Positions 4,394-63,764 of a stretch of DNA of 64,000 nucleotides are shown in pieces. The notes below the pieces were generated by a model that worked only from the letters and a program-made list of their open reading frames with translations, had not been told where the DNA came from and did no database searches. The position numbers were made by a program, and so were the translations under genes. The DNA is taken from NCBI GenBank assembly GCA_045612565.1, contig JAZKZG010000094.1, forward strand, positions 2,556 through 66,555, given 5' to 3'. The DNA comes from Eubacteriales bacterium. GTDB taxonomy: Bacteria > Bacillota > Clostridia > Oscillospirales > QAKW01. Position 1 is the stretch's first letter. Each line of letters begins with the position of its first letter.

Positions 4394-4460
4394 GTTATTG
4401 ACCTTATTAGTTTTAAAATGTAATATAAAGATAATTTGAACATTTGTGAGGTAAAAAGTT

Positions 4461-5597: not shown

Positions 5598-5616
5598 TTT
5601 AACACTAAATAATAAT

Positions 5617-5648
5617 TTAACCCTGCACAAACTGAAGTGCAGGGTTAA
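5617..5648. terminator. bidirectional stem-loop between convergent genes
   Basis: TTAACCCTGCAC-aaactgaa-GTGCAGGGTTAA, a perfect 12-bp stem. Confidence 0.6.
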
Positions 5649-5875
5649 TCTATTATAAATATGTCTTCAAATTCAACATCCAATATGTTTTTTATATGGA
5701 TGATTTCGTCGGGATAAAGGTGACGCTGACCTACTTCGATTTTTGCAACGGCACTTCTTGTTATATCGCACCCAAGTAACTGTAGCCTTGCCGAAAGCAT
5801 TTCTTGTGTGAGTCCCGCTTTTTCCCGTAAATTTCTAATGTTATTTCCAATCAGCTTTTCGATTTTTTCGTTCAC
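5645..5875 (-). CDS. XRE-family helix-turn-helix transcriptional regulator
   Basis: 76 aa. HTH_3-type signature (IRNLREKAGLTQEMLSARLQLLGCDITRSAVAKIEVGQR). Confidence 0.85.
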   Translation of the reverse strand: MNEKIEKLIGNNIRNLREKAGLTQEMLSARLQLLGCDITRSAVAKIEVGQRHLYPDEIIHIKNILDVEFEDIFIID

Positions 5876-39000: not shown

Positions 39001-40277
39001 CAACCTATCAGTCAACTCCCGCAATTACTGTTACAAACAACAACCCCGCAGTGCTCTTACAGGCAGTTCAGGCACAGAACGAGGGCGCAGATAACTTTGA
39101 ATGTGAAGGCATCAAACAACTTTTGACAGTTGACACAAGCACACTTTCAAATGAAGAGGCACAAAATATTATCAGCGCAATCCGCACCGGCAAACACGTA
39201 ATGACTGACGTTGATGCTACATTGCCAGACTGTGAAAACGGCGGAAACAGCGCCCACAAGATATGTATCTACTGTGGACACAAAGAAGGCTTTGTTCCAA
39301 CTGAACCGAATGGTCACGAAACCGTTAAGGTGACAGGTAAAAAAGCAACCTGTACAGCAGATGGTTATAAAGATTACTTCAAGTGTGAAACTTGCGGTAA
39401 AATCTTTGCTGACGAAGCTGCTAAGACTGCAATTGCAGATCTCGAAGCATGGAAACTTGCAGACGGTAAGATTGCAAAAGTTGCTCACGTTTGGGGCGAA
39501 TATGTTTATAACAATGACGCTACAACCGAAAAAGACGGCACAAAGACTGCTAAATGTAACAACTGTGACGCTACAGACGTTAAGGTAGCAGAGGGTACAA
39601 AACTCGAAAAACCTGCAGATAAACCTGCAGATAAACCTGAAGACAAACCCGAAGAGAAGCCTGAAGAAAAACCCGAAGTTGAAATCAAAGATACTTCTAA
39701 GATCTTCAAAGATATCAAGGCTAAAGGCTGGTATAGAAATGCGGTTGACTATTGCTACAGCTACGGATTTATTGCAGGTACTGCAAAAGATACGTTTGGC
39801 CGCACAACCAACGTAACACGCGGTATGTTTATTACGGTTCTCGCGCGTATTGCCGGCGTTGACACAACAAGCAAGGGCGTTAATAAAGTTGAAACTAAGT
39901 TTACTGATGTTAAATCGGGCAAATACTATACTGCTGCTATCAAGTGGGCAAACGAAAATAGTATTGTAAACGGTACAAGCAAAACCACCTTTGGTCCCGA
40001 TAATGCAATCAGCCGTCAGGACCTTTGCGTAATGCTTGTGAACTATGCAAACTTTATGAAAGTTGACCTGAAGGCATCTGTAAAAGAACTTTCGTTCAAG
40101 GATGCAAAAACCATCAGAAAGTATGCAAAAGATGCCGTTAAGGTTTGCCAGATGGCAGGTATTGTAACCGGTTATGCAAACGGAAACGAGTTTGATTTCA
40201 AACCTCAGAATACCGCATCACGTGCCGAGGCTGCACAAATCCTTTATGTATTCCATCAAACCTTTATAGCAAAATAA
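33054..40277 (+). CDS. 2407-aa secreted SLH-anchored multidomain protein with three SGNH/GDSL hydrolase domains
   Basis: Signal peptide. Two long Asn-rich beta-helix-like regions. GDS(L) blocks 'KIACVGDSITE', 'KIAAMGDQTTYG', 'KIACVGDSITDG', each with a downstream 'D(G/R)LHPT' block. His/Cys modules, a (KPxD/E)n linker and three SLH repeats at the C-terminus. Confidence 0.8.
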   Translation: MKRIISWALTVMMIIGCLGSFSTAAFAAVDTSNPISITQWHDETGIIKDGFGVLVPDNTTTSTVEFVWQGGYYTATVGTDAFKTVAAARSAGKKQLILPALTYGKLDISGSIELYGNHFGKNPNVIGEDRTQDWTLNEEWKSNVTTVTGNINIQNVATPTSVKGTVIVIDGLKLNGSFMDNARNVSKYPTSIKLSNMHFGFTTSATRIFELANKNANNADESILNVDSFIVENSRFDYPNKTDSNRTFNEYSPKTLIVNNNYFGKGFSRLGWFKQQVSVKEGHLELSNNYFREGKYIINLCGGVNVFKGKYTDTNSVAKFNNNIVYNSAVDGALEIGPAYFASTEVMGNVFVDTKNLDKHAISTPIYNEMFAGVSYADVITIKGNRFVGVSDHLKLNEGTVSLSKDNANYHSMYTEDFANAQNGTQIYGALKDSDYYLDFNATTLASEAVMKADREGMSVVSKSNVASIVIAKDENYIPSLKTVKDVPFTLYSDKEHKNAVSTISGADVGDGRLYYARAITETNVVIDYTVVISAGDKNAPAYEGAYLLYDKTEDMPVGAKFVATYKGKEYTFTVGVDAFPSLAQISVQHKKDETINVIMLSGAYEGGYNVTGDFNIVGDNTVLKNGFKTDGPVKIACVGDSITEAVMYGGRATWGYPARLNDLLDASYGEGNYEVKNFGKGNSSLQQINTTTTTNLKTANRSQYNQGSWYYSALNYNPDVVMVMIGHNDTQVAETDHIYKSAANYKKYYVDLIESFKELPSNPQIIVVSCHARAAGFRGDLVERCIIPVQKELAERYNTIFVDTFTVTNGMKNAADGVYSTDGLHLTPKGYALLAGLIKDGTDGIYSSKRAVTLDGVTVDENAEVVTKTAKIKIAAMGDQTTYGSKSYINYPTALGQILGDGYEVRNYGECDITTKNYYTDKEYGEIGDYQSALAWKPDVAILGFGANNSTNTAFTNSYQSMIDELKAQGTKIYLLTSLKKSINTKITELAAANELEVIDIYTYAKENLSDYKLSTYLFDEVGNTKFAEFVAKEAFDVNPPEKATEFVLGGQQFKDYTSDYIPVTDAPLFTQRDDSALTIKNDAVAVIELASKKTSGDSIIARWDGQYYKFTVGVNAFGTLAEALSTDVKQIIVPTGLISKFEVTRSVEIYGANYNIHPWTVEGGEKVVQSADWGKYGESVIYQTDIVITKEAVGANILISGFRMTRGFNDTARPLSSENTSITLKNNILDRCFETGDFREFNLLNANNTNSSNTSVENNDEFTIKNMMFQNHSPNTGHALFQEQLPSFFTIDGFGCNSKMTTFGFPKWGYGTKQGKMTLKNCFIKDVNASSSRFPYLINFSGHFGSANLTDQQISNLDLSLEISNNTFIDCYTGGTDGAVIIWPASYTDIVVDGNTLVSTNDINNRGFQWKGQSDFRSNDKNFTDRITFKNNRIIGYIASHYVNDLTKLDLSDNYFETYTLSYRNGVTGDIPADIDANYYLDYKLTTRIGDMAPNSVNAIHALSVDNVTRTISGFATGDIAELGMSNDIGVEYTFYSDAECKNAITSLDVELGNASKAYVKAKRGNIQIVYTLYVIGIKDVADIGSADTNTTLEGIDDATLWYPSLYGAPNGIKVISYYDGKPVEFTTGVNVASSAGEMGLYGDDIIFPDNITEIDGLELVTAVNVYSAVANIKGIKMRKVKIACVGDSITDGVINGGRQDSYPTTMQNLLGTNSYDIQNFGGSGATAQYIEYLRLNANEGDRERQYRVLRKSMYEQSIAYNGDVVIIGLGANDSAVNEPVRWLSNYNFIDQYIDLIREYQSLPSKPAVYITTTTARYDQAVATVLIQENMRYIEQVIADITGAEIIDLNTLMDYMFKSTATEYSSDRLHPTAKGYHEMGKIIADEVTKTLAPIGENTITVNGGTVSGVIESSVAKTNLALNDNTLVIDSQIINGSNIVGVDLHNAVVKKNDKVVSEFDAAELITSGGSVKVDLGVADVETTYQSTPAITVTNNNPAVLLQAVQAQNEGADNFECEGIKQLLTVDTSTLSNEEAQNIISAIRTGKHVMTDVDATLPDCENGGNSAHKICIYCGHKEGFVPTEPNGHETVKVTGKKATCTADGYKDYFKCETCGKIFADEAAKTAIADLEAWKLADGKIAKVAHVWGEYVYNNDATTEKDGTKTAKCNNCDATDVKVAEGTKLEKPADKPADKPEDKPEEKPEEKPEVEIKDTSKIFKDIKAKGWYRNAVDYCYSYGFIAGTAKDTFGRTTNVTRGMFITVLARIAGVDTTSKGVNKVETKFTDVKSGKYYTAAIKWANENSIVNGTSKTTFGPDNAISRQDLCVMLVNYANFMKVDLKASVKELSFKDAKTIRKYAKDAVKVCQMAGIVTGYANGNEFDFKPQNTASRAEAAQILYVFHQTFIAK
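39609..39677 (+). repeat. 12-nt tandem coding repeat (KPADKPADKPEDKPEEKPEEKPE linker)
   Basis: AAACCTGCAGAT x2, then degenerate AAACC(T/C)GAAGA(C/G) units. Confidence 0.8.
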
Positions 40278-43086: not shown

Positions 43087-44748
43087 ATGGAAGATAAAAA
43101 TTTACAGTTAGCAGAACTTTTGTTCTCACACGTTACAAAAACTCCCGACGATATGGAAACGGAGTTTGCCGTTCGTGATTTACCCGAGGGCGCAAAGGTT
43201 ACACGTATTGCACCCAGCCCCACAGGTTTTGTTCATTTCGGCAACCTTTTTCCTGCAATGATATCAGAGCGTCTTGCACGTCAGAGTGACGGTCTTTTCC
43301 TTCTTAGAATTGAAGATACCGACGCACAGCGTAAGGTTGAGGGTGCGGTTGAAACAATCATCGATTCATTTGCGCACTACGGTCTCCAGTTTGACGAGGG
43401 CGCATCAAAAACAGGTGATATCGGTGCTTACGGACCTTATTTTCAGTCGCAGCGCGCACACATCTACCACGTTTTTGCAAAATCACTTGTACAGCAAGGT
43501 CTTGCATACCCCTGCTTTTATACTAAAGACGAACTCGAAAAAATCCGTGAAGAGCAGGAGGCAAAAAAAGTGCTCCCCGGTGTATATGGTGAGTGGGCAA
43601 AATACCGCGATGCCGATATTGACACCGTAAAAGAACTTATCGAAAAGGGCGTACCTTATGTTGTACGTCTTCGTTCACCCGGTGTTGTCGGTGGCAGAAT
43701 TAAGGTAACCGACGTTATCAAGGGTAATCTTGAACTCGACGAAAACTATGTTGACGGTGTTATCTTAAAGAGTGACGGCATTCCCACATACCACTTTGCA
43801 CACGCGGTTGATGACCATCTTATGCGCGTAACCCACGTTGTACGCGGTGAAGAATGGCTTCCGTCTCTTCCGCTTCATATCCAACTCTTTAAAGTACTTG
43901 GCTTTAAGGCTCCCAAATATCTGCACATTTCACTGCTTATGAAACAGGACGGCACCTCAAAGCGTAAACTTTCAAAGCGTCACGACCCTGAAGCCGCACT
44001 TTCATACTATAAAGAAGTTGGTTATCCCGCAGCGTCGGTGCGTGAGTATGTTATGACACTCCTTAACTCAAACTTTGAAGAGTGGCGTATGCAAAATCCC
44101 AAGGCTCCGCTTGACGACTTTAAGTTTACCACCGCAAAAATGAGCCACAGCGGTTCGCTTTTCGATATAAACAAACTCGACGACGTTTCTAAAAACGCAA
44201 TCAGCGTTATGACTGCCGACGAGGTAACATCACAGGTTATAAACTGGGCAGAAGAGTTCGACAGCGAACTTTATTCGCTTCTCTCACGTGATGAGGACTA
44301 TACAAAGAGCATTTTTGCAATCGGCAGAACAGACGCAAAACCGCGTAAAGATCTTGCAAAATGGAACGAGGTCCGCGCCTATGTAGGTCTTTTCTTTGAT
44401 GAGTTGTTTGCAAATATTGATGCAATGCCGGCTAACGTGTCGGATGACGATATTGTGGCAATCCTCACACAGTTTAAAGACAGTTACGATATCGCTGATG
44501 ACAGCAGTGCATGGTTTGAAAAATTAAAGGTTATTGCCGACAACTTAGGCTTTGCGCAAAAACCGAAAGACTATAAAAACAATCCCGATATGTACAAAGG
44601 TCACGTAGGTGACATCAGCATGGTGCTTCGTGTGGCGGTTTCGGGCAAAACAATGTCTCCTGACCTCTACAGCATTATGCAGATTATCGGTAAAGACAGA
44701 ACTTTCGCACGAATTGATGACGCAATAAAGAGTATTAAGGAGAACTAA
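43087..44748 (+). CDS. gltX: glutamate--tRNA ligase (long, divergent form)
   Basis: 'RIAPSPTGFVHFGNLF' (HIGH region reads HFGN), 'LLRIEDTDAQR', 'KLSKR'. 553 aa. Confidence 0.85.
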   Translation: MEDKNLQLAELLFSHVTKTPDDMETEFAVRDLPEGAKVTRIAPSPTGFVHFGNLFPAMISERLARQSDGLFLLRIEDTDAQRKVEGAVETIIDSFAHYGLQFDEGASKTGDIGAYGPYFQSQRAHIYHVFAKSLVQQGLAYPCFYTKDELEKIREEQEAKKVLPGVYGEWAKYRDADIDTVKELIEKGVPYVVRLRSPGVVGGRIKVTDVIKGNLELDENYVDGVILKSDGIPTYHFAHAVDDHLMRVTHVVRGEEWLPSLPLHIQLFKVLGFKAPKYLHISLLMKQDGTSKRKLSKRHDPEAALSYYKEVGYPAASVREYVMTLLNSNFEEWRMQNPKAPLDDFKFTTAKMSHSGSLFDINKLDDVSKNAISVMTADEVTSQVINWAEEFDSELYSLLSRDEDYTKSIFAIGRTDAKPRKDLAKWNEVRAYVGLFFDELFANIDAMPANVSDDDIVAILTQFKDSYDIADDSSAWFEKLKVIADNLGFAQKPKDYKNNPDMYKGHVGDISMVLRVAVSGKTMSPDLYSIMQIIGKDRTFARIDDAIKSIKEN

Positions 44749-44749
44749 A

Positions 44750-46405
44750 ATGGAAGAACTTACATCATTTTTTATACACGATATCATTGATAAAGATATC
44801 GAAAACGGCCTTGATCGCCGTATTCACACACGTTTCCCGCCCGAACCCAACGGTTATCTGCATATCGGCAGTGCAAAAGCAATTTTTATAAACCACTATA
44901 CCGCACAAAAATATAACGGTCTTTTCAATCTTCGTTATGACGATACCAACCCCGTAAAAGAGGATGACGAGTATGTAAAGAGCATTTATGAAGACCTCAA
45001 ATGGCTCGGTTGTGACATAAACGGCGGTGTATTTTACGGTTCTGACTATTTTGATAAATGCTATGAGTACGCTTGTCAACTTATCCGTCAGGGCGATGCT
45101 TATGTCTGCGACCTCAACGCCGACGAAATGCGCGAATACCGCGGTACACTCACAGCCCCCGGTAAAGAAAGCCCCTACAGAAACAGAAGCGTTGAAGAAA
45201 ACCTCGCACTTTTTGAGAAAATGAAAAATGGTGAGTTCGAAGATGGTGCCTGTACCCTTCGTGCAAAGATTGATATGTCGAGTTCAAATATGAACCTCCG
45301 CGACCCTGCAATCTACCGCATCAGCCACACCCACCATCACCGTCAGGGCGATAAATGGTGTATCTATCCGCTTTATGACTTTGCACATCCCATTCAGGAC
45401 GCACTCGAGGGCATTACACATTCGCTCTGCTCACTTGAGTTTGAAAACCACCGTCCGCTTTATGACTGGGTTGTTGACAAGATCGGTTTTGAAAATAAAC
45501 CCCATCAGTATGAATTTGCACGTCTTAACGTTACAAATACAGTTATGAGCAAACGCTATCTTCGTGAACTGGTTGAAACAGGCATTGTTGACGGTTGGGA
45601 CGATCCGCGTATGCCCACACTCTGCGGTCTTCGCCGTCGCGGTTACACACCCTCATCGATTATTGAATTTGTAAAACAGGCGGGTGTTTCAAAGGCATTT
45701 TCAATTGTTGATATCGGTATGCTCGAACACTGTGTGCGTGATGAACTCAACTACTCGGCGCAAAGACGCATCGCGGTAATCGACCCGATAAAAGTTGTTG
45801 TTGATAACTATCCCGAGGATAAAACCGAGACCTTTAAGGTATCAAATAACCCCAATGACGAAAACGCAGGAATGCGCGAAGTATCATTCAGCCGTGAACT
45901 GTACATCGACCGTGCCGACTTCCTTAAAGAAAAGGTTGGCAAGTTCTTCCGTATGTATCCCGGCGGTGAGGTTCGTCTTATGAGTGCATACATCGTAAAA
46001 TGTACAGGCTTTGAAGAGGATGAAAACGGCAACGTTACAGTAATTCACTGTGAGGCTGATCTCGAAACAGGTTGTAATATGCCCTCTGACGGCAGAAAAA
46101 TTAAAGGTACAATCCACTGGGTTAACGCAAATGATTGCGAAAATGCAAAGGTTATCAAGTACGATAAACTTTTCACCGAAGAAAACCTTGTTACAATGGA
46201 AGAAGGCAAGACCTATGGCGATTATCTCAATCACGATTCTGTTATTGAGTTTAATAATGCCAAAGTTGAACGCGCACTTGCAGAGGCAAAACCTTCTGAT
46301 AAGTTCCAGTTTGTAAGAACGGGTTATTTCTGCCGCGATACCAAAAACACAGATGAACTTGTATTTAACTCAATTGTTGAACTCCGCGACAGCAAAGGTA
46401 AATAA
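44750..46405 (+). CDS. glnS: glutamine--tRNA ligase
   Basis: 'RFPPEPNGYLHIGSAKA', 'LRYDDTNP', 'VMSKR'. Starts 1 nt after the gltX stop (TAAAATG). Confidence 0.92.
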   Translation: MEELTSFFIHDIIDKDIENGLDRRIHTRFPPEPNGYLHIGSAKAIFINHYTAQKYNGLFNLRYDDTNPVKEDDEYVKSIYEDLKWLGCDINGGVFYGSDYFDKCYEYACQLIRQGDAYVCDLNADEMREYRGTLTAPGKESPYRNRSVEENLALFEKMKNGEFEDGACTLRAKIDMSSSNMNLRDPAIYRISHTHHHRQGDKWCIYPLYDFAHPIQDALEGITHSLCSLEFENHRPLYDWVVDKIGFENKPHQYEFARLNVTNTVMSKRYLRELVETGIVDGWDDPRMPTLCGLRRRGYTPSSIIEFVKQAGVSKAFSIVDIGMLEHCVRDELNYSAQRRIAVIDPIKVVVDNYPEDKTETFKVSNNPNDENAGMREVSFSRELYIDRADFLKEKVGKFFRMYPGGEVRLMSAYIVKCTGFEEDENGNVTVIHCEADLETGCNMPSDGRKIKGTIHWVNANDCENAKVIKYDKLFTEENLVTMEEGKTYGDYLNHDSVIEFNNAKVERALAEAKPSDKFQFVRTGYFCRDTKNTDELVFNSIVELRDSKGK

Positions 46406-53970: not shown

Positions 53971-55566
53971 ATGAATGAAAATAAATTATTAATGAAACAA
54001 AAATTTAATAAAACACATTCTATGCAGTTTCGTGTTTTGGCTACCATAATTTTCGCAATGCTTACAATAACGGTTTTTATTGGTGGCATCAGCATTTACG
54101 AGGTGGACCAATACATACAGGATGAGTCGGAAAACTTTGTTGTGGTTGCTTGTGAAAATGAAGGCACACAGATTGACGATATTTTTGATGATATGGAAAA
54201 ATCGGTCAAGATTATGGAAAGCTACATAATGGACTTTTTTACCGAGGACGTCATTGTGGAAGATCGCAATTTTCAGGAAAAAGTTGTCAATAGTACCGAC
54301 AAAATGTTTGCCGAAGTTGCCAAACACGCAAGTGGTGCAGTTGCCTATTATTTTCGGTTAGACCCTGCGATTTCAGATGGTAAAATGGGATTGTTTTATA
54401 GCAAAACAAAAGAAAATGATGAATACGTTTCTTTGGAACCAACCGATATCTCACTTTATGAAAAAGAAGATACCGAACACGTTGGTTGGTTTTGGCAGCC
54501 TTACCAAGCCGGAAAACCTGTCTGGATGTTGCCTTACTATAACCAAAATAACAATATTTATATGATTTCATATGTGGTACCGATGTATCATAAAGAAAAA
54601 CTTATTGGCATTGTTGGAATGGATTTTGATTATACGGTTTTATCAGACCGCGTACACGAAATTAAAATTTATGAAAATGGATTTGCTCATTTAGAAACCA
54701 ACGGAGTTGTTATTCATGACGACAGTGTGCTTGATGAAAAAATCACACACGATCCAAATAAATATCTGCGCGTATCAAAAGAGTTGAAAAACGGAATGAC
54801 GCTTGTTATTTCTGCAAGTTATGATGATATCCGACAAATTCGATATGAAATCAGTATTGTGATTTTGTTTGCTGTTTTAATACTGTCTGCGTTTTTTACA
54901 GTGGTGGCAATTATTGTTGTCAAGAGAATCGTTGCCCCACTCAAAAAAATTGTCGATGCGGCGGTAAAACTATCAAATGGGGATTATGATGTAGAATTTG
55001 TACATAGTAACGTTTCCGAAATAGAACTTTTAAACACGGCTTTTGAAAATATGGCAACGCATTTACACGAGCGCGAACGAGAATTGAGCTTTTCTGCCAA
55101 ACGTGACTCTCTTACGGGTCTTAGAAATACCACATCGTATAAAAGTTGGGTAGAAGAGTTTGAAAAAGAGATTGAAAATAAAACCGCAGAGTTCGGTGTT
55201 GTTGTTTTTGACTTAAATCAACTTAAGGAAACGAATGATACATATGGACACGATGTAGGCGATAAACTTATCGTTACTGCCGCAAAAGTGATTTCGGATG
55301 TTTTTAAAAGAAGCCTCGTTTTCAGAATAGGCGGAGATGAGTTTTTGGCGGTTCTTCAACACAAAGATTTAGAAAACTGCGAAAAATTATTTGCTCAGTT
55401 TGATTTGGAATGTATAAAGACACGTATTGAAGAAACACCTATCAGCATTGCAAGAGGTTTTGCAAGGTTTGACCCGGACCGCGATTTATACTTTAATGAC
55501 GTATTTAAACGTGCAGATAATGCTATGTATGAAAACAAGAGAAAAAGCAAAAAAGTTACGGTTTAA
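53971..55566 (+). CDS. Cache-like sensor / HAMP / GGDEF diguanylate cyclase
   Basis: TM, ~260-aa extracytoplasmic domain, TM, HAMP (VAPLKKIVDAAVKLSNGDYD), GGDEF (DLNQLKETNDTYGHDVGD...FRIGGDEFLAV). Confidence 0.85.
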   Translation: MNENKLLMKQKFNKTHSMQFRVLATIIFAMLTITVFIGGISIYEVDQYIQDESENFVVVACENEGTQIDDIFDDMEKSVKIMESYIMDFFTEDVIVEDRNFQEKVVNSTDKMFAEVAKHASGAVAYYFRLDPAISDGKMGLFYSKTKENDEYVSLEPTDISLYEKEDTEHVGWFWQPYQAGKPVWMLPYYNQNNNIYMISYVVPMYHKEKLIGIVGMDFDYTVLSDRVHEIKIYENGFAHLETNGVVIHDDSVLDEKITHDPNKYLRVSKELKNGMTLVISASYDDIRQIRYEISIVILFAVLILSAFFTVVAIIVVKRIVAPLKKIVDAAVKLSNGDYDVEFVHSNVSEIELLNTAFENMATHLHERERELSFSAKRDSLTGLRNTTSYKSWVEEFEKEIENKTAEFGVVVFDLNQLKETNDTYGHDVGDKLIVTAAKVISDVFKRSLVFRIGGDEFLAVLQHKDLENCEKLFAQFDLECIKTRIEETPISIARGFARFDPDRDLYFNDVFKRADNAMYENKRKSKKVTV

Positions 55567-55657: not shown

Positions 55658-56056
55658 ATGACGGATAAAGAATTTAAACGCTTAAGCAGAGCGCAGTTGA
55701 TTGAGATTATCTATCAACTCCAATTGCAAATCGACCAACTGAATGAGCAAAAGCAAGGTTTGGAAAGCGAATTAGCAGACAAACGTCTTCGTTTGAGCGT
55801 TGCCGGTAATATTGCTGATGCAGCCCTTGAAATTAATGATTGCTTCCGTAGTGCACAAAATGCAGCAGAACAATATTTAAATGAAATTAAAGCTATCCGT
55901 GAAGAAACCGAACAAGAGCGACAGACGATAATTTCGGAGGCACGAGCGCAAGCGGAGGAAATCATTGCGGACGCAAAAAAGACGCATGGCGATTACGATT
56001 CTGCGATAGATACGATTTTGAATGAATTTAGGCAGAGTCATTCGGATAACGGGTGA
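55658..56056 (+). CDS. hypothetical coiled-coil protein
   Basis: 132 aa, heptad-rich and charged. Its stop overlaps the signal peptidase start region. Confidence 0.5.
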   Translation: MTDKEFKRLSRAQLIEIIYQLQLQIDQLNEQKQGLESELADKRLRLSVAGNIADAALEINDCFRSAQNAAEQYLNEIKAIREETEQERQTIISEARAQAEEIIADAKKTHGDYDSAIDTILNEFRQSHSDNG

Positions 56057-56061
56057 TAGAT

Positions 56062-56649
56062 ATGTTACATAGTAAGAAAAAGGAAGTATCGCTTCCAACA
56101 AAAAAGCAGGTTGAAACAGAACGAAAGCGATACCGCCGTCAAAAAGCCTATAATAAAGCCCTGCGCGGAACAGTATACGTTTTAACGATAGTAGCCGCTG
56201 TTGCCGTGTTGATTGCAACACTGATATTACCTGTTTTGCAAATTGAGGGAACCAGTATGGAGCCGACGTTATCAAACGGTGATATCGTGTTACTTGCAAA
56301 AACAACCCGTTTTGACCGCGGAGATCTTTGCGGATTCACCTGGAACAACAAACTTTTAATAAAACGAGTAATTGGTCTGCCGGGTGATTGGATTGAGATT
56401 GATACCGACGGAACGGTATACCTCAATGGCGATAAATTGGAAGAACCTTATGTGGAACATAAGGCTTTGGGAGAATGTGATTTAGAGTTTCCTTTTCAAG
56501 TGCCGCTGGAGCAGTATTTTGTAATAGGAGATATGCGTGAAAGTTCTATCGACTCTCGCAATACGGTAATTGGATGCATTCCAAAAGATCAGATTGTCGG
56601 AAAAGTTTTCTTTAGAGTATGGCCGTTTAAGAGCATACGATTTTTTTAA
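56062..56649 (+). CDS. type I signal peptidase (S26)
   Basis: TM anchor, catalytic-Ser box 'EGTSMEPTL', Lys box 'IKRVIGLPGD', 'GDMRESSIDSR'. The start could be GTG 56053 or ATG 56062. Confidence 0.85.
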   Translation: MLHSKKKEVSLPTKKQVETERKRYRRQKAYNKALRGTVYVLTIVAAVAVLIATLILPVLQIEGTSMEPTLSNGDIVLLAKTTRFDRGDLCGFTWNNKLLIKRVIGLPGDWIEIDTDGTVYLNGDKLEEPYVEHKALGECDLEFPFQVPLEQYFVIGDMRESSIDSRNTVIGCIPKDQIVGKVFFRVWPFKSIRFF

Positions 56650-56682
56650 ATAAACAATGTATTTATAAAAGGACAAGCGTTT

Positions 56683-59600
56683 ATGAGTTTCATTGAACAA
56701 TACTTGTTACAATTGAATACCGAAAAACGACGATGGCGATGTGCTATAGCAATTTTAACAGCATTGTCACTCATCGTTGCGCTTGTTACCGTGTGGAATT
56801 TGCGTATGACAGGCATTACGATTGCAAACAGCGCATCTTGCGGATATGAGGAACACCAACATACAGAAGATTGTATGCAACAAGACGTCCTGATTTGCAC
56901 TGTGTCGGAGCATATTCACAAAGCCGAATGTTATTCCGATCCTAAAGCGGATACTGAAACTTCATTAGATTGGCAAAATATGTTTGCCAACTACCCTTAT
57001 ACAGGTGTTGTTCGAGAGGATTTAGTCGGCATCGCCAAAACTCAGGTGGGATATACTGAGAGTCAGTTGAATTTTGAAGCCGGAGACGACGGTGTACGGC
57101 GTGGTTATACAAGGTATGGCGCATGGTACGGAGCGCCCTATAACGATTGGTCTGCAATGTTTGTGTCGTTCTGTCTGAACTTTGCAGGAGCGGATTGTTC
57201 GGTATTTCCTAACAGTTCCGGCGCTGCAATGATGGCAGAACTTTGGAAAACACACGAAAAGTATATTCCTGCGGGAGATTATGTTCCGCAAAGCGGAGAT
57301 ATTGTATTTTTTAATAACAACACTGTAGGTATTATTACTGAAATATTTAACACCAATTTTTATGTAATCCGTGGTGATGTACAGAATAAAGTTACCAATG
57401 ATATGATGTCGCTGAATGACCCGTCTATTGTTGGCTGGGGATGCACAGAAACACCTGTTCACAGCGATAATGTACCGACAGATGACTTGTTGGATATATC
57501 AGACGGACCTGCTTTTTTCATTATAGAAGGAAACAAGATAGAACAACCGGCACGAAGATTTACCTTGAGAGCTAACCGTGCAATTATGCAACTGATTCCT
57601 TATCTGGAAGCCAACGGCGGTAACTATTTTTTAACATTGTTGGACCTTAACAATAAGGAACTGCCCAAAGATGAAAACGGAAATTACATTGCTGTAGCTA
57701 ACGAAGGCTATAAGTTGACCCTCACCTTTAATAGCCCGAAGGGATTTTTACCGGGAACGTATCAGTATCAGATTTCCAACGGAATGATGGTAGATGGCGG
57801 TAACGGCGAATTTGTTTTGACTGACGGAACCAAAGTTGGTACCTGGGAGGTCTCTGATACGGGTCTTATTACTCTTGAGTTCAACGAGCAGATAAATAGC
57901 CGTACGGACATAACTATTAGTTCAACGCTTGGTATCCACTTTCAAGAGCAGGATGACCTTATTGATTTTGACGGTTTAATCACTGTTAAGATTGAGCCGC
58001 CCGTTCAGCAAAAGGACCCAACTGTTTTGTCAAAATGGGGTTCTCCCAACTCGAGTGCGAAAAAAATCAATTGGACGGTGCGAATTGACGGACATACGGA
58101 TTCGCAGATTCCCGGTAACATTCTTACCGACCAACCCACACTAAGCGATTGGAGCAGACCACATAGTTATACACAATCAGACATAGATGGCGGTCTGACC
58201 TTTGGTGTTTCAGACCCGACGGGAGGATGGCATGCATGGACTGTTCACGCTGACGACCCACATCTTGTATGGGATGAAACGGGATGGTCCTATAAGATTC
58301 CCAAAACTGTTATATGCGACTATTGCGGACAACTGGAATTGGGCAATGATGGGTGGTCCTATCTTATAAATTATACGTCTACCCCCACAGAACTCAACAC
58401 TCCCGGTACCTTTGACTATGAGAACAAGGTCACAGTGGATGGCCAGACAGCATGGGGCTGGAGTAATTTCACTCATGTTGAGATTGAGGCGCAGATCGTT
58501 AAGACAGGCTCTTTTGTATCCGATGCAACCGGAGGCGGTTTCCTTTGGGAATTCCAGGCTACAATACCGGGACGTCAGGAAGGACAGAGAGCAGAGTATT
58601 CCTGGTTTATTATGGATGAGATGCGTCTTATGGATGATAAAGGCACAATCATAGGCCGTGTACAAAATGATGTCAATCTGTCTACAGTTACGGCAGTCTA
58701 TAATGGAACGGTTATCCAAATTCCACGCATTCAGGATGCTACGGACGAGGATATGTTCGCCTGGGACAATGCTTGGACAGCAACAGAAAATGGTGTCGGT
58801 TACAACCGAACGATAAATCTCCTTTGTCGATGCCAATGTACCACTGAAACATGCCATTGGTCAGGATGCGGAGACTATTGGTTCCAGAAAGATAACGGTG
58901 AATGGGCTGCCAACGGTTTTTGTCAGTGCTGGACAGAAACACAGAATATGACGTTTACTTTTGTTTACAAAACCGAGGATATATCCTTAATTAAAGATTA
59001 TGGTTCTCTTGATTATAAAGTAAACAATCATGCGCAACTGTACTATATGCCCGATGGCAGCAACTCTGTCAGGGTTGATTATGATGATGCGACGGTCACT
59101 ATTCCAAATCTGTTTGAAAAGCAGCTTACCCATGATTTTAACGGCTATACCGCTCACTATAAAATCACGGTGAACGAAGCCAAATTGGTGCTGACAAACG
59201 GTTCACCATTAACAATTCACGATGCTATGACCGATACATTGGCGTACATAGGCGGTTCGCTTGTTATTACAACCGAAAATGCAAACGGCCACACAAGTGT
59301 CTTGCAGCAAGGTGTGGATTATACCGTCACTTATGATGGTACAGGAAATCAAACGGATTCTGCGGGTAAAAAAGTGCATGTGCTGGATATTGTTATTCTA
59401 AAACCGCAACCGGTTATGTATATCCTTGATTATGATACGACACTCATTATGCCGGAGCATATAACAGGCGGTGTTAAGTATAGTAACTCCGCAAATATTA
59501 CGCTTTGGGGCAAGGATGTTACGAATAACGCTGTCGAAAAGGTGTATGCCGATATTAATATTGCCGCCAAGAGTTATGCCGTCGAAATGTCTAAGACTTG

Positions 59601-60066
59601 CGCACTGACCAACAAAGCGCTTTCGGGAGCAACATTTGGTCTTTACAATGCGCAAGGCGGTTTGATAACTTCAGGTGTGACAGATGCTGACGGAAAACTG
59701 GTATTCCGTACTAATATCATAGAAGGCATCGTTTTGCAAGAACATAAGTTGTACTATTTGCAGGAAATTCAACCGCCACCGGCTTATCAATTGGATGATA
59801 CAAAGTATTGGTTCTGTTTCTGCAGTGATAAAGGCAATACTTGTGTCGAATGCAACAAGCTTATGATAGATGTGGAGGCTGTTCGTATTCCGTTTGAGCA
59901 AATTGGTCTTATCAATATTGTTAACTATCCTGCCAATGTAGAATTGCCCGCCACAGGCGGTATTGGCACGTACATTTATATACTATGCGGACTAACGCTT
60001 GTGATTGGGCCGCTTGTATACGGATTCAGCTTGAGGCGCAGATATGGAAGGAGGTCAAAAAAATAA
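56683..60066 (+). CDS. 1127-aa LPATG-anchored pilus tip/adhesin-like protein with degenerate CHAP-like domain
   Basis: N-terminal signal anchor, two C-x4-H-x-H-x3-C knuckles and a CHAP-like region (aa ~100-240). C-terminal Cna-B/E-box-like 'YYLQEIQPPPAY'. Sorting signal 'LPATGG' plus hydrophobic stretch plus RRRYGRRSKK. Confidence 0.75.
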   Translation: MSFIEQYLLQLNTEKRRWRCAIAILTALSLIVALVTVWNLRMTGITIANSASCGYEEHQHTEDCMQQDVLICTVSEHIHKAECYSDPKADTETSLDWQNMFANYPYTGVVREDLVGIAKTQVGYTESQLNFEAGDDGVRRGYTRYGAWYGAPYNDWSAMFVSFCLNFAGADCSVFPNSSGAAMMAELWKTHEKYIPAGDYVPQSGDIVFFNNNTVGIITEIFNTNFYVIRGDVQNKVTNDMMSLNDPSIVGWGCTETPVHSDNVPTDDLLDISDGPAFFIIEGNKIEQPARRFTLRANRAIMQLIPYLEANGGNYFLTLLDLNNKELPKDENGNYIAVANEGYKLTLTFNSPKGFLPGTYQYQISNGMMVDGGNGEFVLTDGTKVGTWEVSDTGLITLEFNEQINSRTDITISSTLGIHFQEQDDLIDFDGLITVKIEPPVQQKDPTVLSKWGSPNSSAKKINWTVRIDGHTDSQIPGNILTDQPTLSDWSRPHSYTQSDIDGGLTFGVSDPTGGWHAWTVHADDPHLVWDETGWSYKIPKTVICDYCGQLELGNDGWSYLINYTSTPTELNTPGTFDYENKVTVDGQTAWGWSNFTHVEIEAQIVKTGSFVSDATGGGFLWEFQATIPGRQEGQRAEYSWFIMDEMRLMDDKGTIIGRVQNDVNLSTVTAVYNGTVIQIPRIQDATDEDMFAWDNAWTATENGVGYNRTINLLCRCQCTTETCHWSGCGDYWFQKDNGEWAANGFCQCWTETQNMTFTFVYKTEDISLIKDYGSLDYKVNNHAQLYYMPDGSNSVRVDYDDATVTIPNLFEKQLTHDFNGYTAHYKITVNEAKLVLTNGSPLTIHDAMTDTLAYIGGSLVITTENANGHTSVLQQGVDYTVTYDGTGNQTDSAGKKVHVLDIVILKPQPVMYILDYDTTLIMPEHITGGVKYSNSANITLWGKDVTNNAVEKVYADINIAAKSYAVEMSKTCALTNKALSGATFGLYNAQGGLITSGVTDADGKLVFRTNIIEGIVLQEHKLYYLQEIQPPPAYQLDDTKYWFCFCSDKGNTCVECNKLMIDVEAVRIPFEQIGLINIVNYPANVELPATGGIGTYIYILCGLTLVIGPLVYGFSLRRRYGRRSKK

Positions 60067-60153
60067 GTCCTCCCCAAATGGCGTAAAATCAAATTTATGC
60101 GCCTGACTGATTCCAAAATAATATAAAATTTATTTTTAGAAAGGAAAATCATT

Positions 60154-61956
60154 ATGAAAAAGTTTTTATCCATCATTATGGTGTTGGCAATAGTTCTTTC
60201 TTTGTGTGTTACCGCTTTTGCGGCAGATAACAAAGGTTCTATCACCATCACTAACGCAACCATCGACGAAACCTACGCAATCTACAAAATCTTCGATGCA
60301 ACTATCAGCAAGGATGCCGGTGGAAACACAAAAGCGGTTTCCTATAGTATTACAACCGACAACCAATTCTTTGCCGCTCTCTTCGGTGCTGACGGCAAGA
60401 CAGAAAACCTCTTCTTTGTGTACAATAGCAACACAGGCTCTGTTACAAAGAAGGAAGGTGTCAACGATGCAGAACTGATAAAGTATCTGACCGAATTAGT
60501 TGAAAACGGCACTTACGCCACTGCCGCTACACCTGTCAAGGCTACCAATGAAGAAGTGAAGTTTGAGGATCTGCCCTATGGTTATTACTTAATCACCAGT
60601 TCTTTGGGCACAACTGTAACTATCAACTCAAATACTCCTGACGTTAAAGTAATTGATAAAAACCAGAAGCCCGGCAGCGGTTTTGATAAACTGATACAAA
60701 ACGGTGTGGATGTTAACGGAGATCCCATTTGGGCTGAATCTAACTCCGCTAATATAGCTGACGAGGTAACTTACAAAATTTCTTTTGAAGCAACCAATTA
60801 CGACGGCGAAAACAAGATCAAGTACTACCAGATTCATGATGAAAAGGGCGAAGCAATCTGGGCAGAATTTAACAGTTTTGAAGTTTATGTTGACGGTGTG
60901 AAACTTGAGAGAGGTTACTATCTGTCTCAGGGCGGAAATAATACTGATAACTGGGAATATTTCGGCGACTGGACCGGTACAGAGAAGAATCGTAACAACG
61001 CACAGTGGTACCTGGTACATCTGGACTATGACAAGTTCCGTATCACTATTCCGTGGTTGGAAAATCACACTCTTTCCAATGTTACCAACGATGTTGGAGA
61101 AATCACATCTTATTCTGTGAACTTCCCCGAGAATGCCGAATCTAAATTTGATTCTCCCGTTCAGGTAGAGATTATCTACAAAGCGGTAGTTGAAGCAAAT
61201 GCTGCTATCGGTGATACAACCCATGGTAACCGTTACAACAAGGCTTATGCTTCTTGGACAAGTGAACACGAAACTGATTCTACCAAACCTGAAGAGGTTG
61301 TAACCTATGTTTACGGTATCGGCTTACTTAAAGACGACATTGCTACCCGTGAGAATTTGGCAGGTGCTAAGTTCCGTATCTACAAGGATGAGGCATGTAC
61401 TCAGCCACTCAATGTAATTCCTACAAAGATTGACGGTGTTTACATCGTTGATAGTTTAGGTACCGCTGCGGAAAATATTAGCGGCATTATGCAAGAAACC
61501 ACTCGTAAACTGTACGAGGCATATCTGGCAGAATATTTGAAGGATGATAACGGTAATACTATTGAAAAGAATAACCTTGTTGTCTCACAGGCTAACGGTA
61601 AGTTGGCTATCCTTGGTCTTAAGGAAGGCGCTTACTACCTTAAGGAAGTAGAGGCTCCCGACGGCTATAACGCTCTGACTCAGCCTGTTAAATTTGAGGC
61701 AGGTAAAGATATCCGCCCATTCAGCATATTTGCTGACGAGAACGGCAATGTTGCTGATATTCAGGAAGAAGATGGTGTACATACCGAAAATCGTTACGAC
61801 CTGACACATACTGTTGTTCACAACAGCAAGGGTGTTGTGTTGCCTTCTACAGGCGGTATGGGAACTTTCTGGCTTATTACCATCGGCACTTTACTTGCTA
61901 TTGGCTTTGCTGTGTTCCTTATCACTCACAAAAAGATGTCTGTTTATACTGACTAA
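60154..61956 (+). CDS. backbone (major) pilin-like isopeptide-domain protein, LPSTG sorting signal
   Basis: Signal peptide ending in 'AFA-AD'. Pilin-motif-like 'DVKVIDKNQKP'. E-box 'YYLKEVEAPDGYN'. 'LPSTGGMGTFWLITIGTLLAIGFAVFLITHKK'. Confidence 0.8.
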   Translation: MKKFLSIIMVLAIVLSLCVTAFAADNKGSITITNATIDETYAIYKIFDATISKDAGGNTKAVSYSITTDNQFFAALFGADGKTENLFFVYNSNTGSVTKKEGVNDAELIKYLTELVENGTYATAATPVKATNEEVKFEDLPYGYYLITSSLGTTVTINSNTPDVKVIDKNQKPGSGFDKLIQNGVDVNGDPIWAESNSANIADEVTYKISFEATNYDGENKIKYYQIHDEKGEAIWAEFNSFEVYVDGVKLERGYYLSQGGNNTDNWEYFGDWTGTEKNRNNAQWYLVHLDYDKFRITIPWLENHTLSNVTNDVGEITSYSVNFPENAESKFDSPVQVEIIYKAVVEANAAIGDTTHGNRYNKAYASWTSEHETDSTKPEEVVTYVYGIGLLKDDIATRENLAGAKFRIYKDEACTQPLNVIPTKIDGVYIVDSLGTAAENISGIMQETTRKLYEAYLAEYLKDDNGNTIEKNNLVVSQANGKLAILGLKEGAYYLKEVEAPDGYNALTQPVKFEAGKDIRPFSIFADENGNVADIQEEDGVHTENRYDLTHTVVHNSKGVVLPSTGGMGTFWLITIGTLLAIGFAVFLITHKKMSVYTD

Positions 61957-61981
61957 TTTTTGACTTACAAAAATATCGGGT

Positions 61982-62009
61982 GGGAGGAGAGAAGTTCTGC
62001 TCTCCTCCC
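61982..62009 (+). promoter_or_regulatory. perfect 10-bp GC-rich hairpin between the pilin and sortase genes
   Basis: GGGAGGAGAG-aagttctg-CTCTCCTCCC. No U-tract follows. Confidence 0.6.
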
Positions 62010-62038
62010 GCTAAAACTATAACAGAAAGGAGATGCCT

Positions 62039-62905
62039 ATGAGAAAGCATAAGACTGTAATTATTTTAACCGTTGGTTTTTTGGTAGGTATCTGCATTCT
62101 GTTATATCCCGCATCCAGTGATTTTTGGAACAGCAAAACCCAAAGCCGAGCAATTACTGACTATGAATCTGTTTTGGATACCCTTGATGAAAATGACTAC
62201 AATGCTCTTTTTGAAAGTGCCCATGCTTACAACAAGGCGTTGTATGAAACGAATTATCCGTTGATAGATTATAGAAAAGTGCCGGGGTACTACGACACTC
62301 TTCGCATAACCGATAATGATATGATAGGCTATTTGAAGATTGAGCGTATTGGCGTGGAACTTCCAATTTACCACGGCACATCGGACGATGTTCTTAACAG
62401 AGGTGTAGGTCATCTGGAAGGGAGCAGTTTGCCTGTGGGCGGAGAAAATACCCATAGTGTTATGTCTGCTCATAGGGGATTGCCCAGTTCAAAACTGTTT
62501 ACCGAACTTGACCGTGTAGAAAAGGGCGATACCTTTCAGATTGTAATACTGAACCAAGTTCTGACATATCAAGTTGATTTTATAAAAGTAATAGAACCTA
62601 ATGATGTTTCGGATTTGAATATTATTGAAGGCGGTGACTATTGCACTCTGTTTACCTGCACACCCTATGGCATCAATACACATAGGTTGCTGGTACGGGG
62701 CGTAAGAATTGAAACAATCAAAGAAAAACCTATGATTTATGTCTCCAACGAGGCATTTCGTATAGAACCGCTATTGGTAACTCCTGCGGTTGCGGCACCT
62801 ATGCTTTTGGTGTTACTGATTCACTTGCTTGTTAAGTATAGAGAACCGCCTAAAAATACGCAACAAAAGAAAAAAGAGGAAGGAGGTACAGAAAGTGACC
62901 CGTAA
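62039..62905 (+). CDS. class C (pilus-polymerising) sortase
   Basis: N-terminal TM, 'TLFTCTPYGINTHRLLVRG' catalytic Cys box, C-terminal TM helix typical of class C. ATG 62039 has the better GGAG spacing; 62033 is possible. Confidence 0.9.
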   Translation: MRKHKTVIILTVGFLVGICILLYPASSDFWNSKTQSRAITDYESVLDTLDENDYNALFESAHAYNKALYETNYPLIDYRKVPGYYDTLRITDNDMIGYLKIERIGVELPIYHGTSDDVLNRGVGHLEGSSLPVGGENTHSVMSAHRGLPSSKLFTELDRVEKGDTFQIVILNQVLTYQVDFIKVIEPNDVSDLNIIEGGDYCTLFTCTPYGINTHRLLVRGVRIETIKEKPMIYVSNEAFRIEPLLVTPAVAAPMLLVLLIHLLVKYREPPKNTQQKKKEEGGTESDP

Positions 62906-63764
62906 AATCACAACCTTTTGTGTAACAATATTACTGCTTTTAACTTGTTATTTATCGGCTTTTGCAGAAGAATTCGACCAAAGCAAAACCGGGTCTATAT
63001 CTGTTACGCTTATCGAACAAAAACAACCGATTGTTGGAGCAGAACTTAGTGTCTATTATGTTGCAACCGCTTTATTGGATGCAGACAGAAATTTGATTTA
63101 TGACTATACTAAAGAATTTAAACAGATTGATACTGCAATTGATGATACGTCACTTGCCGCAAAACTGGATGCGTTTGTATCTTTGCACAGTGTACCTTCT
63201 GTTAAAATAACAACCGATACTGACGGCACGGCGTTGTGCAAAGAACTTCCTTTAGGACTTTATTTTGTCAAGCAGACAGGTGCAGTAGAAGGCTTTTCAC
63301 CCTGTACGCCCTTCCTTGTAACAGTTCCTAATGAAAAGAATGGTGTATATGTGTACGATGTAAACGCTTCTCCAAAAACAGAAGTCGAAAGACTCACTTC
63401 TATCACCATAAAAAAGGTGTGGAATACCGATAAATCCACCGAGGCAACTCAAAGTGTTACCGTTCAGTTGCTTAAAAGTGGAAATGTAGTCAAGACGGCA
63501 ATTCTTGATGTTAAAAACGATTGGCAAGTAACTTATGACGATATGCCTGTAAGCGATGCTTACAGTGTCAAAGAAGTAGACGTGCCGAAAGGGTTTACTG
63601 CAACTTATAAGCAAAACGGTTATATTTTCACAGTTACTAATACTTCGACTTTAATACAAACCGGTCAGTTGATGTGGCCGATTCCTGCGTTGGCAATGGG
63701 CGGTATGCTTTTAATTGCGGTAGGTATTGTGCTGTTACAGAAAAAGAGGAAAACAAATGCGTAA
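62895..63764 (+). CDS. small Cna-B-type pilin (minor/basal) with non-canonical LIQTG sorting signal
   Basis: GTG at 62895 follows AGGAGG and overlaps the sortase 3' end. Signal peptide '...CYLSAFAEE'. 'LGLYFVKQTGAVEGF' E-box-like, 'VNASPKTE', and 'LIQTGQLMWPIPALAMGGMLLIAVGIVLLQKKRK'. Confidence 0.7.
   Translation: MTRKITTFCVTILLLLTCYLSAFAEEFDQSKTGSISVTLIEQKQPIVGAELSVYYVATALLDADRNLIYDYTKEFKQIDTAIDDTSLAAKLDAFVSLHSVPSVKITTDTDGTALCKELPLGLYFVKQTGAVEGFSPCTPFLVTVPNEKNGVYVYDVNASPKTEVERLTSITIKKVWNTDKSTEATQSVTVQLLKSGNVVKTAILDVKNDWQVTYDDMPVSDAYSVKEVDVPKGFTATYKQNGYIFTVTNTSTLIQTGQLMWPIPALAMGGMLLIAVGIVLLQKKRKTNA

Follow-up and report, generated by a model that had tools for sequence, protein, structure and literature searches.

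A conserved CHAP-fold head without its catalytic residues on the putative tip subunit of a Clostridia sortase pilus

The window analyzed here, a stretch of 64,000 nucleotides of contig JAZKZG010000094.1 from a Eubacteriales bacterium of the class Clostridia that its relatives suggest to be an uncultured gut organism similar to Oscillospiraceae, carries on its forward strand a gene for a protein of 1127 amino acids that ends in an LPATG sorting signal and is the putative tip subunit of a sortase-assembled pilus (hereafter the tip protein, Table 1). The N-terminal domain of this protein, the head, is a genuine but divergent CHAP-type fold in which, according to the alignments described below, all four catalytic positions (Cys, His, Glu, and Asn) are replaced. 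With all of these positions changed, the head is predicted to be unable to work as a cysteine-histidine hydrolase. The reading that we favor, with moderate confidence, is that the head is a non-catalytic ligand-binding module on a probable pilus tip subunit.

The assignment to the CHAP fold, which a preliminary description of this DNA had made by eye, is borne out by sequence profiles, by the relatives of the head, and by structure prediction. The strings quoted in that description, YTRYGAWYGAPYNDWSAMFVSFCLNFAG and SGDIVFFNNNTVGIITEIFNTNFYVIRGD, are present in the tip protein, as is the LPATG motif. When the head fragment is searched alone, the Pfam CHAP profile (PF05257) gives a sub-threshold match of residues 151-230 to positions 4-79 of the 81 in the profile (E 3.5e-4, 21.4 bits); on the full-length tip protein there is no match to this profile at E<=0.1. 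The homologues of the head form two tiers, one that is 58-78% identical and displays the pattern 'DWSAMFVSFC / NNT-VGI / IRGD', and one that is 36-44% identical, is recovered with E values of 1e-23 to 1e-30, and displays the canonical pattern 'DWCAMFVSFC / DHVGIV / IEGN'. All 17 aligned members, that is the tip head together with canonical relatives, match the Pfam CHAP profile, with a best E value of 4.7e-14, and the Pfam matches to DUF2272 and Amidase_6 that recur in relatives also look CHAP-related.

The AlphaFold2 (AF2) model of residues 91-260 is confident, with a predicted local distance difference test (pLDDT) score of 87.7 and a predicted template modeling (pTM) score of 0.85. The replaced residues occupy papain-fold positions in this model, with S157 opening the helix 156-167 and T214 located just before the strand 215-222. 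Foldseek searches with the model matched TIGR02594 proteins, a 'PlyB-like endolysin', and CHAP proteins among the predicted viral structures of BFVD (E 2e-9, TMq 0.65-0.70), and the CHAP lysin Ly7917, a diffocin baseplate protein, PlyGRCS, Gsp amidase, and PlyC among the solved structures of the PDB (E from 9e-4). Searching the PDB by sequence with the head domain returned chance matches only, and searching it with the canonical profile matched only the 'GDLVFFD..HVGI' His motif of NlpC/P60 enzymes, which was of no help in placing the Cys column. Compared with the CHAP hydrolases of PF05257, such as LysK CHAPK (PDB 4CSH), Ly7917 (PDB 5D74/5D76), and the phage PlyB-like/TIGR02594 lysins, the head has the same papain-like alpha+beta fold, clear common descent, and the same order of motifs, namely the xW[C]AxFVS helix, the GD(L/I)VFF...[H]VGI strand, and the xI[E]G[N] strand. 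It differs from them in that the four catalytic positions are replaced, the His loop is gone, and the domain is N-terminal on an LPXTG pilus subunit and not part of a lysin or autolysin. Because the catalytic residues by which the enzyme family is defined are all replaced, and because the score lies under the Pfam threshold, we treat the head as a homologue with a degenerate CHAP fold rather than as a CHAP hydrolase.

The catalytic columns were placed by reference to LysK, where CHAPK has the triad C54/H117/E134 and the nearby N136 is proposed to contribute to the oxyanion hole; in this enzyme, the mutations C54A and H117A abolish activity while E134A and N136A lower it (PMC4126393). The LysK sequence used was checked and is 100% identical to phage 812/K-like endolysins. 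In Pfam coordinates, LysK residues 46-136 cover profile positions 3-81, with E134 at position 79 and N136 at position 81, and the canonical relatives from loci L051 and L057, whose matches start at position 1, have their Cys at 10, Glu at 79, and Asn at 81. The same coordinates (61-140 of the head fragment on positions 4-79) put S157 at 10, R230 at 79, and D232 at 81. Alignment of the canonical profile with LysK by hhalign places the His column of the family (T214) on H117, the Glu column (R230) on E134, and the Asn column (D232) on N136; this alignment spans the C-terminal half only, at 15% probability, and was used for the His, Glu, and Asn columns jointly with the Pfam coordinates.

These placements agree with what the preliminary description had proposed, with one small correction. 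The nucleophile Cys is replaced by Ser157, both in the family alignment and at profile position 10, and the 'EGN' of canonical domains is replaced by 'RGD'; the codons that it gave for the Ser and the Thr are those found in the open reading frame. The correction concerns the replacement of the His by a Thr: T214 does lie in the His column, but the change is not a simple swap, a loop of approximately six residues before this position having also been deleted in the clade of the tip protein. The description had further considered that the Cys of 'VSFC' or that of 'GADC' might be the true catalytic residue, and both are ruled out as substitute nucleophiles. C164 ('VSFC') is conserved at 0.97 in the active and dead groups alike and is found in 120/120 orthologues, which means that it is structural, and C172 ('GADC') is kept in 2 of the 120. 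The orthologue alignments contain no conserved His anywhere in the domain.

The orthologue set comprises the 120 closest full-length proteins, with 67-100% identity, including a nameless NCBI entry (P0210) that is identical to the tip protein. Across this set S157, C164, and G231 are invariant (120/120 each), and T214 and D232 are nearly so (118/120 and 117/120), which answers the question raised earlier of whether the replacing Ser and Thr are conserved. Position 230, by contrast with these, is variable (R 66, C 35, H 13, S 3, G 2, Q 1). In a set of 26 full-length orthologues taken from genome loci, residues 81-160 rank with the most conserved parts of the tip protein, at a level similar to that of residues 801-920. 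A rough Nei-Gojobori estimate of the ratio of nonsynonymous to synonymous substitution rates (dN/dS), with dS near saturation, gives approximately 0.12 for the head and 0.08-0.13 for the domains of the stalk, versus 0.43 for the linker at residues 256-300. The difference between head and linker, the conservation of residues 81-160, and the fixation of S157, T214, and D232 support, indirectly, that the dead head is functional and not decaying, and that selection maintains it. When 109 canonical domain copies are compared with 179 degenerate ones, 34 positions are conserved in both, including those of GYTRYGxWYGxPYxDW, FxSFC, and GDxxF, while C157, H214, E230, and N232 are conserved in the active group only, together with E98, L106, W110, G154, C181, W184, L188, Y242, and Y252. 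As far as sequence can tell, constraint has been lost at the catalytic center and a few other positions and kept over most of the rest of the domain.

The tripeptide RGD at residues 230-232, together with the presence of relatives of this organism in mammalian guts, would be compatible with a host-directed adhesin that exposes the RGD to bind integrins. This is extremely improbable, because R230 is found in only 66 of the 120 orthologues and varies across loci, the conservation of the Gly-Asp pair is tied to the old active site, and the AF2 model places these three residues within a beta-strand instead of a flexible loop. The frequency of R230 indicates that the tripeptide is incidental, as the preliminary description had suspected, with Gly-Asp as the conserved descendant of the Gly-Asn of EGN.

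In the mechanism proposed for a binding head, the tip protein would be exported via its long signal-anchor, probably aided by the co-encoded signal peptidase, as in established sortase-pilus biology, and by the same analogy the class C sortase would cut LPATG and attach the first shaft pilin, through one of its Lys residues, to the Thr. Because the C-terminal Thr would be the point of attachment to the shaft, the N-terminal head would be found at the far end of the fiber. The head would have descended from an active Cys-His-Glu(-Asn) peptidoglycan amidase or peptidase through the changes of Cys to Ser157, of His to Thr214 with deletion of the loop, of Glu to a variable residue 230 (Arg here), and of Asn to Asp232, and the former substrate cleft would most likely have been kept as a non-catalytic binding pocket, making the head a lectin-like adhesin module. 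Strong purifying selection acts on the fold, on the aromatic-rich GYTRYGxWYGxPYxDW that leads to the old nucleophile, and on S157, N213, T214, and D232. The fact that these polar replacements are fixed and that the aromatic wall is conserved, together with the active/dead tandems of the relatives, points to a binding pocket. The leading guess for the ligand is an amide of the peptidoglycan stem-peptide or cross-bridge type on neighboring Gram-positive cells, which is the most economical guess because it resembles the ancestral substrate, and which would give inter-bacterial adhesion. If the ligand is indeed peptidoglycan, pili of this family would allow bacteria of the gut community to adhere to, or attack, one another. 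Alternatively, the ligand could be of host or dietary origin.

Several points weigh against a binding head. The head falls below the Pfam gathering score (21.4 versus 26 bits), and its matches to solved structures are distant (TMq 0.49). The Cys column is mapped from sequence and profile alignment and from secondary-structure position. The protein is placed at the tip solely on the grounds of gene order, size, and architecture, since in such an operon the tip subunit is expected to be the first LPXTG protein, a large one. Beyond a head that is catalytically dead and conserved, each step of the favored reading is one that we infer. Moreover, it is conceivable that Ser157 has become part of a new catalytic pair with the fixed Asp232, and the CnaA/collagen-binding-like immunoglobulin (Ig)-like domains of the stalk could be the real adhesive part of the protein.

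The last of these points would make the dead CHAP domain a structural cap or a folding/export module, with adhesion residing in a stalk of the CnaA/collagen-binding type, as in the microbial surface components recognizing adhesive matrix molecules (MSCRAMMs). Residues 375-483 of the stalk give weak Pfam matches to Big_8 and Collagen_bind, Foldseek finds that the stalk resembles the adhesive regions of SdrD, Cna, UafA, and antigen I/II (AgI/II), and the dN/dS of the stalk (0.08) is even under that of the head. Nonetheless, the residues that took the place of the catalytic ones and the aromatic motif that flanks the cleft are invariant, which is more than the upkeep of a fold requires, and the head stays N-terminal and distal through a family of thousands, in which it has also been duplicated as active/dead tandems. 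A mere cap is therefore considered unlikely.

The family to which the head belongs is large. A scan of species-representative genomes found at least 344 loci, in as many species-level genomes, that encode a relative, and 80 of them were fetched for detailed comparison. These 80 loci all come from uncultured bacteria, mostly from the guts of ruminants, rabbits, humans, and other animals, and almost all are from Clostridia (Faecousia, Oscillospiraceae, Acutalibacteraceae, Lachnospiraceae, and others), with one record labelled Eggerthellaceae. Most of the proteins that they encode have 1100-3000 amino acids and an LPXTG-type C-terminal signal, and matches to signal peptidase, pilin, and class C sortase flank most of the family genes, those with degenerate heads as well as several with canonical ones. 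Among the canonical-head loci, L051 and L057 have both a signal peptidase and pilins/sortase, L064 has pilins and a sortase, and L073 and L078 have a signal peptidase only. An exhaustive profile search recovered 13,419 representatives of clusters (at 50% identity) with E<=1e-3, a number that falls to 2135 with E<=1e-30; of 147 new family representatives, with a median length of 1516 amino acids, 107 end in LPXTG. The 120 close orthologues are named 'hypothetical protein' or 'LPXTG cell wall anchor domain-containing protein', or, in most cases, are unnamed, and nearly all have only a SpaA domain precomputed. A literature search for CHAP-headed or CHAP-tipped sortase pili found nothing relevant.

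Over 211 domain copies of the family, the nucleophile column holds Cys in 102, Ser in 69, and Asp and Asn in 17 each. Copies with Cys have the His in 98 of 102 cases and the Asn in 90 versus an Asp in 7, and copies without Cys pair with Asp. In a neighbor-joining tree from which the catalytic columns were left out, the tip head falls in a clade of 101 members that are all dead (S 78, N 13, D 8, T 2), and a rough parsimony count on this tree, with Cys at the root, requires at least 23 changes between active and dead. As judged from this tree, inactivation appears to have happened repeatedly in the family. Because its heads range naturally from active through half-dead to fully dead, at times within one protein, the family is a good system in which to follow the evolution of an enzyme into a binding module.

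The same columns bear on the proposal that the head is still an enzyme, rewired to use Ser157 as nucleophile with Asp232 (and N213/T214) in a Ser-Asp type of dyad acting on a surface ester or amide. S157 and D232 are fixed in the orthologues and not drifting, and across the family the switch from Asn to Asp goes with the loss of the Cys, as seen in the pairs formed by columns 157 and 232 (S-D 49 versus S-N 2, N-D 13, D-D 11; C-N 90 versus C-D 7). The residue that corresponds to D232 in LysK, N136, is near the catalytic triad (PMC4126393), and 12 members of the family are Ser-forms that keep the His (S/H/E-G-D). In the clade of the tip protein, however, no His or other general base is conserved and the loop that bore the His is deleted, and in sister lineages with dead heads the nucleophile column is occupied by Asn, Asp, or Thr in combination with the same x-G-D, which fits hydrogen bonding in a binding pocket better than it fits catalysis. 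Continued enzymatic activity of this kind is very unlikely. As to the Ser-forms themselves, found in L058, P0040, P0066, and others with Ser at the nucleophile position, His and Glu kept, and Asp in place of Asn, they may either work as Ser-His-Glu enzymes or represent stages on the way to inactivation.

With regard to domain composition, 82 proteins have a single active head, 81 a single dead head, 16 an active/dead tandem, and 8 a dead/dead tandem. In every mixed tandem seen (e.g., P0063, P0068, P0069, P0072, and P0077) the canonical copy comes first and the degenerate copy directly after it, an order that is typical of the pairing of a catalytic domain with a binding module. Some operons encode two LPXTG proteins with dead CHAP heads, at 1188-5828 and 7653-11465 in L052 and at 1167-5807 and 7653-11471 in L055, with Asn at the nucleophile position in one protein and Asp in the other; these paired heads may be alternative tips for one fiber. 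Tandems and paired proteins could also be expected if the dead head were a pseudoenzyme partner that recruits or regulates an active peptidoglycan hydrolase of its own cell or of a neighbor, as dead LytM factors do with amidases; EnvC and NlpD are known pseudoenzyme activators of cell-wall hydrolases. This is highly improbable for the tip protein, given that no second, active CHAP domain was found in the 64-kb window, that both heads are dead in L052 and L055, and that the end of a covalent fiber, far from the wall, is ill-suited to regulating the autolysins of the cell itself.

The conversion of a pseudoenzyme into a binder and the existence of sortase-pilus tip adhesins are both already known; it is their combination and the size of the family that are new. 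For adhesion over long range, Gram-positive bacteria mainly use sortase pili and, to our knowledge, the characterized heads of their tips are vWFA, thioester, or collagen-binding-type domains. A head of CHAP fold would be a further, and common, type. No thioester or vWFA domain, as found in Cpa, RrgA, SpaC, and EbpA, was detected in the full-length tip protein with Pfam or NCBIfam at E<=0.1. The closest parallel for the proposed function is RipD (Rv1566c) of Mycobacterium tuberculosis, whose NlpC/P60 domain is reported to have become a non-catalytic binder of peptidoglycan (Both et al. 2014, cited in PMC6628586). RipD resembles the tip protein in having an N-terminal hydrolase domain of papain fold with altered catalytic residues and the fold kept, which has no hydrolase activity and is retained as a binding module. 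It differs in belonging to the NlpC/P60 branch, in being a small secreted protein that acts on the wall of its own cell, and in that its binding has been demonstrated, whereas the head studied here belongs to the CHAP branch and is a putative binder on a pilus.

An adhesive role is also known for a CHAP domain, given that the one of Aaa from Staphylococcus aureus binds fibrinogen, fibronectin, and vitronectin (PMC3386970). Aaa, which consists of LysM and CHAP domains, is like the proposed head in having an adhesive CHAP domain, and unlike the tip protein in that its CHAP domain is catalytically active, that it associates with the wall non-covalently via LysM, and that it is no pilus subunit. 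The proteins with canonical CHAP heads in gut Clostridia (L051, L057, L064, L073) share with the tip protein the N-terminal head, H-x-H-x3-C repeats, and an operon with signal peptidase, sortase, or pilin genes; they differ from it in keeping the C/H/E-G-N residues, in being predicted to be active, and in being usually longer (1.7-3 kaa). No experimental studies of canonical CHAP-headed LPXTG or pilus proteins were found in the literature. It is possible, although we regard it as doubtful, that gut Clostridia have a large undescribed class of sortase pili with a CHAP head on the distal subunit, in which active members would present a peptidoglycan hydrolase at the tip and dead members a peptidoglycan-specific lectin that glues the cell to other Gram-positive bacteria, with Ser157/Asp232 and the H-x-H-x3-C repeats as new recognition chemistry. 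If this were true, a pilus with an active head would be a contact-dependent device for cutting the walls of neighbors, or a means for the growing fiber to pierce the wall of its own cell.

The genes at 56053-63764 are arranged in the way that is classical for sortase pili with three pilins, in the order signal peptidase, tip protein, major pilin, class C sortase, and basal pilin on one strand, and the tip protein is its large LPXTG subunit, in line with its earlier description as an LPATG pilus subunit. A search for a pilin motif in the tip protein returned weak look-alikes only. The 600-aa shaft pilin matches the SpaH/EbpB family NF033902 (1.1e-22) with 80.5 bits, which is under the cutoff of 95 bits, and Pfam SpaA with an E value of 2.1e-14. 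This operon is repeated in most of the 80 related loci, with a signal peptidase match directly 5' of the tip gene in most of those with upstream sequence. The same operon logic is found in the FCT-type loci of Streptococcus pyogenes (cpa-sipA-fctA-srtC-fctB), which encode a signal-peptidase homologue, a large tip adhesin, a shaft pilin, a class C sortase, and a small basal pilin. Cpa (Spy0125) resembles the tip protein in having an N-terminal head on an Ig-like stalk and an LPXTG-type signal, and differs from it in the nature of the head: Cpa has a thioester domain, with which it forms a covalent bond to its target, and the tip protein has a dead CHAP fold. SipA is reported to lack the catalytic Ser and Lys, whereas the signal peptidase encoded here keeps both, in the motifs SMEPT (Ser68) and KRVIG (Lys104).

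Table 1. Coordinates in the window (1 = first nucleotide of the 64,000) of the pilus operon, of the parts of the tip protein, and of the replaced catalytic positions
Feature	Position	Strand	Basis
Signal peptidase I, first gene of the pilus operon	56053..56649	+	Pfam Peptidase_S26 1.2e-36; TIGR02227 4.8e-38
Putative pilus tip subunit gene, 1127 aa, ends in LPATG sorting signal	56683..60066	+	Open reading frame
Long N-terminal signal-anchor (residues 1-52), charged N-region and hydrophobic helix	56683..56838	+	AF2 helix 2-48
Two C-x4-H-x-H-x3-C units (residues 53-83; C53/H58/H60/C64 and C72/H77/H79/C83)	56839..56931	+	Candidate metal-binding knuckles
CHAP-like (papain-fold) head, catalytically degenerate (residues 91-255)	56953..57447	+	Pfam, AF2, Foldseek; family hidden Markov model 248 bits
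Ser157 (TCT) at the catalytic Cys nucleophile position	57151..57153	+	Aligned with Cys of canonical relatives; Pfam profile position 10
Cys164 ('VSFC'), structural Cys, not the nucleophile	57172..57174	+	Conserved in active and dead groups
Thr214 (ACT) at the catalytic His position	57322..57324	+	Family alignment; hhalign onto LysK H117
R230-G231-D232 in place of E-G-N (LysK E134, N136)	57370..57378	+	Pfam coordinates, hhalign
Linker (residues 256-300), low confidence, poorly conserved	57448..57582	+	pLDDT <50; dN/dS 0.43; highest entropy in the protein
All-beta stalk, about five Ig-like (CnaA/CnaB-type) domains (residues 301-1085)	57583..59937	+	AF2 secondary structure, Foldseek
Cell-wall sorting signal: LPATG (59944-59958, residues 1088-1092), hydrophobic segment, basic tail RRRYGRRSKK	59944..60063	+	Motif scan
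Major (shaft) pilin, 600 aa, LPSTG, pilin-motif-like 'VKVIDKN' (Lys169)	60154..61956	+	NF033902, Pfam SpaA
Class C (pilus-polymerizing) sortase, TLFTC active-site motif	62033..62905	+	NF033745 class_C_sortase 1.8e-76, 256.8 bits versus cutoff 160
Small minor (probably basal) pilin, 311 aa, LIQTG-type sorting signal	62829..63764	+	Pfam Cna_B 4.8e-13, SpaA 1e-9

Outside the head, the signal-anchor of the tip protein is atypically long and has the invariant pattern W-x-L-R-x-T-G...N-x-A-x-C, with W38, L40, R41, T43, G44, N49, and A51 as invariant columns in the orthologue alignment; relatives have 'LILPAITME' or 'LRQPGLTLAG' in its place. The shaft and basal pilins have ordinary signal peptides of the AFA type. 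The intact signal peptidase next to this atypical signal-anchor suggests a dedicated processing of the tip subunit. Between the signal-anchor and the head, all eight residues of the two C-x4-H-x-H-x3-C units are invariant in 38 orthologues, and the H-x-H-x3-C motif is present in 140 of the 147 family representatives in 1 to 23 copies, in active-headed and dead-headed proteins alike. A Pfam scan gave no match for these units, which look like an undescribed extracellular Cys2His2 metal-binding repeat, C-x4-H-x-H-x3-C(Y). They were also considered as a source in trans of the Cys and His that the head is missing, and this was ruled out because active relatives have the same repeats.

The architecture of the stalk was taken from a full-length AF2 model of moderate confidence (pLDDT 65.9, pTM 0.38), which was used for this purpose only, the head being poorer in it than in the domain-only run. 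Foldseek matches of the stalk (E 3e-16 to 1e-8) include the Ig domains of PrgB, SdrD, the C123 region of antigen I/II, EbpB, BcpA (weak), CppA, SpaD, and a TIE protein, and residues 967-1050 match the Pfam SpaA/prealbumin domain with 39.7 bits versus a cutoff of 23.1. The stalk also contains clusters of largely invariant Cys residues, at residues 715-749 (58825-58929; CRCQC..C....C...CQC) and 1045-1057 (59815-59853; CFC......C..C), which are unusual in a Gram-positive surface protein and could be disulfide or metal clusters. The LPxTG motif is conserved in the 120 orthologues. Weak Pfam matches to KOWx_SPT5, DUF2272, SLATT_1, and Gar1 were disregarded; apart from DUF2272, they look spurious.

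The strand that carries the pilus operon also has, directly 5' of it, genes for a diguanylate cyclase with dCache, HAMP, and GGDEF domains (53971-55566) and for a small DivIVA-like coiled-coil protein (55658-56056); control of piliation by cyclic di-GMP is possible from the position of this cyclase. A conjugative-element context is unsupported, the neighbors scanned being housekeeping genes and a two-component system. Farther upstream, a tandem pair of genes for class I aminoacyl-tRNA synthetases of the Glu/Gln type (553 and 551 aa) lies at 43087-46405. At 33054-40277 (+), a gene encodes a secreted protein of 2407 amino acids with GDSL lipase/esterase domains and three C-terminal SLH domains, which indicates that this organism also displays SLH-anchored enzymes at its surface.

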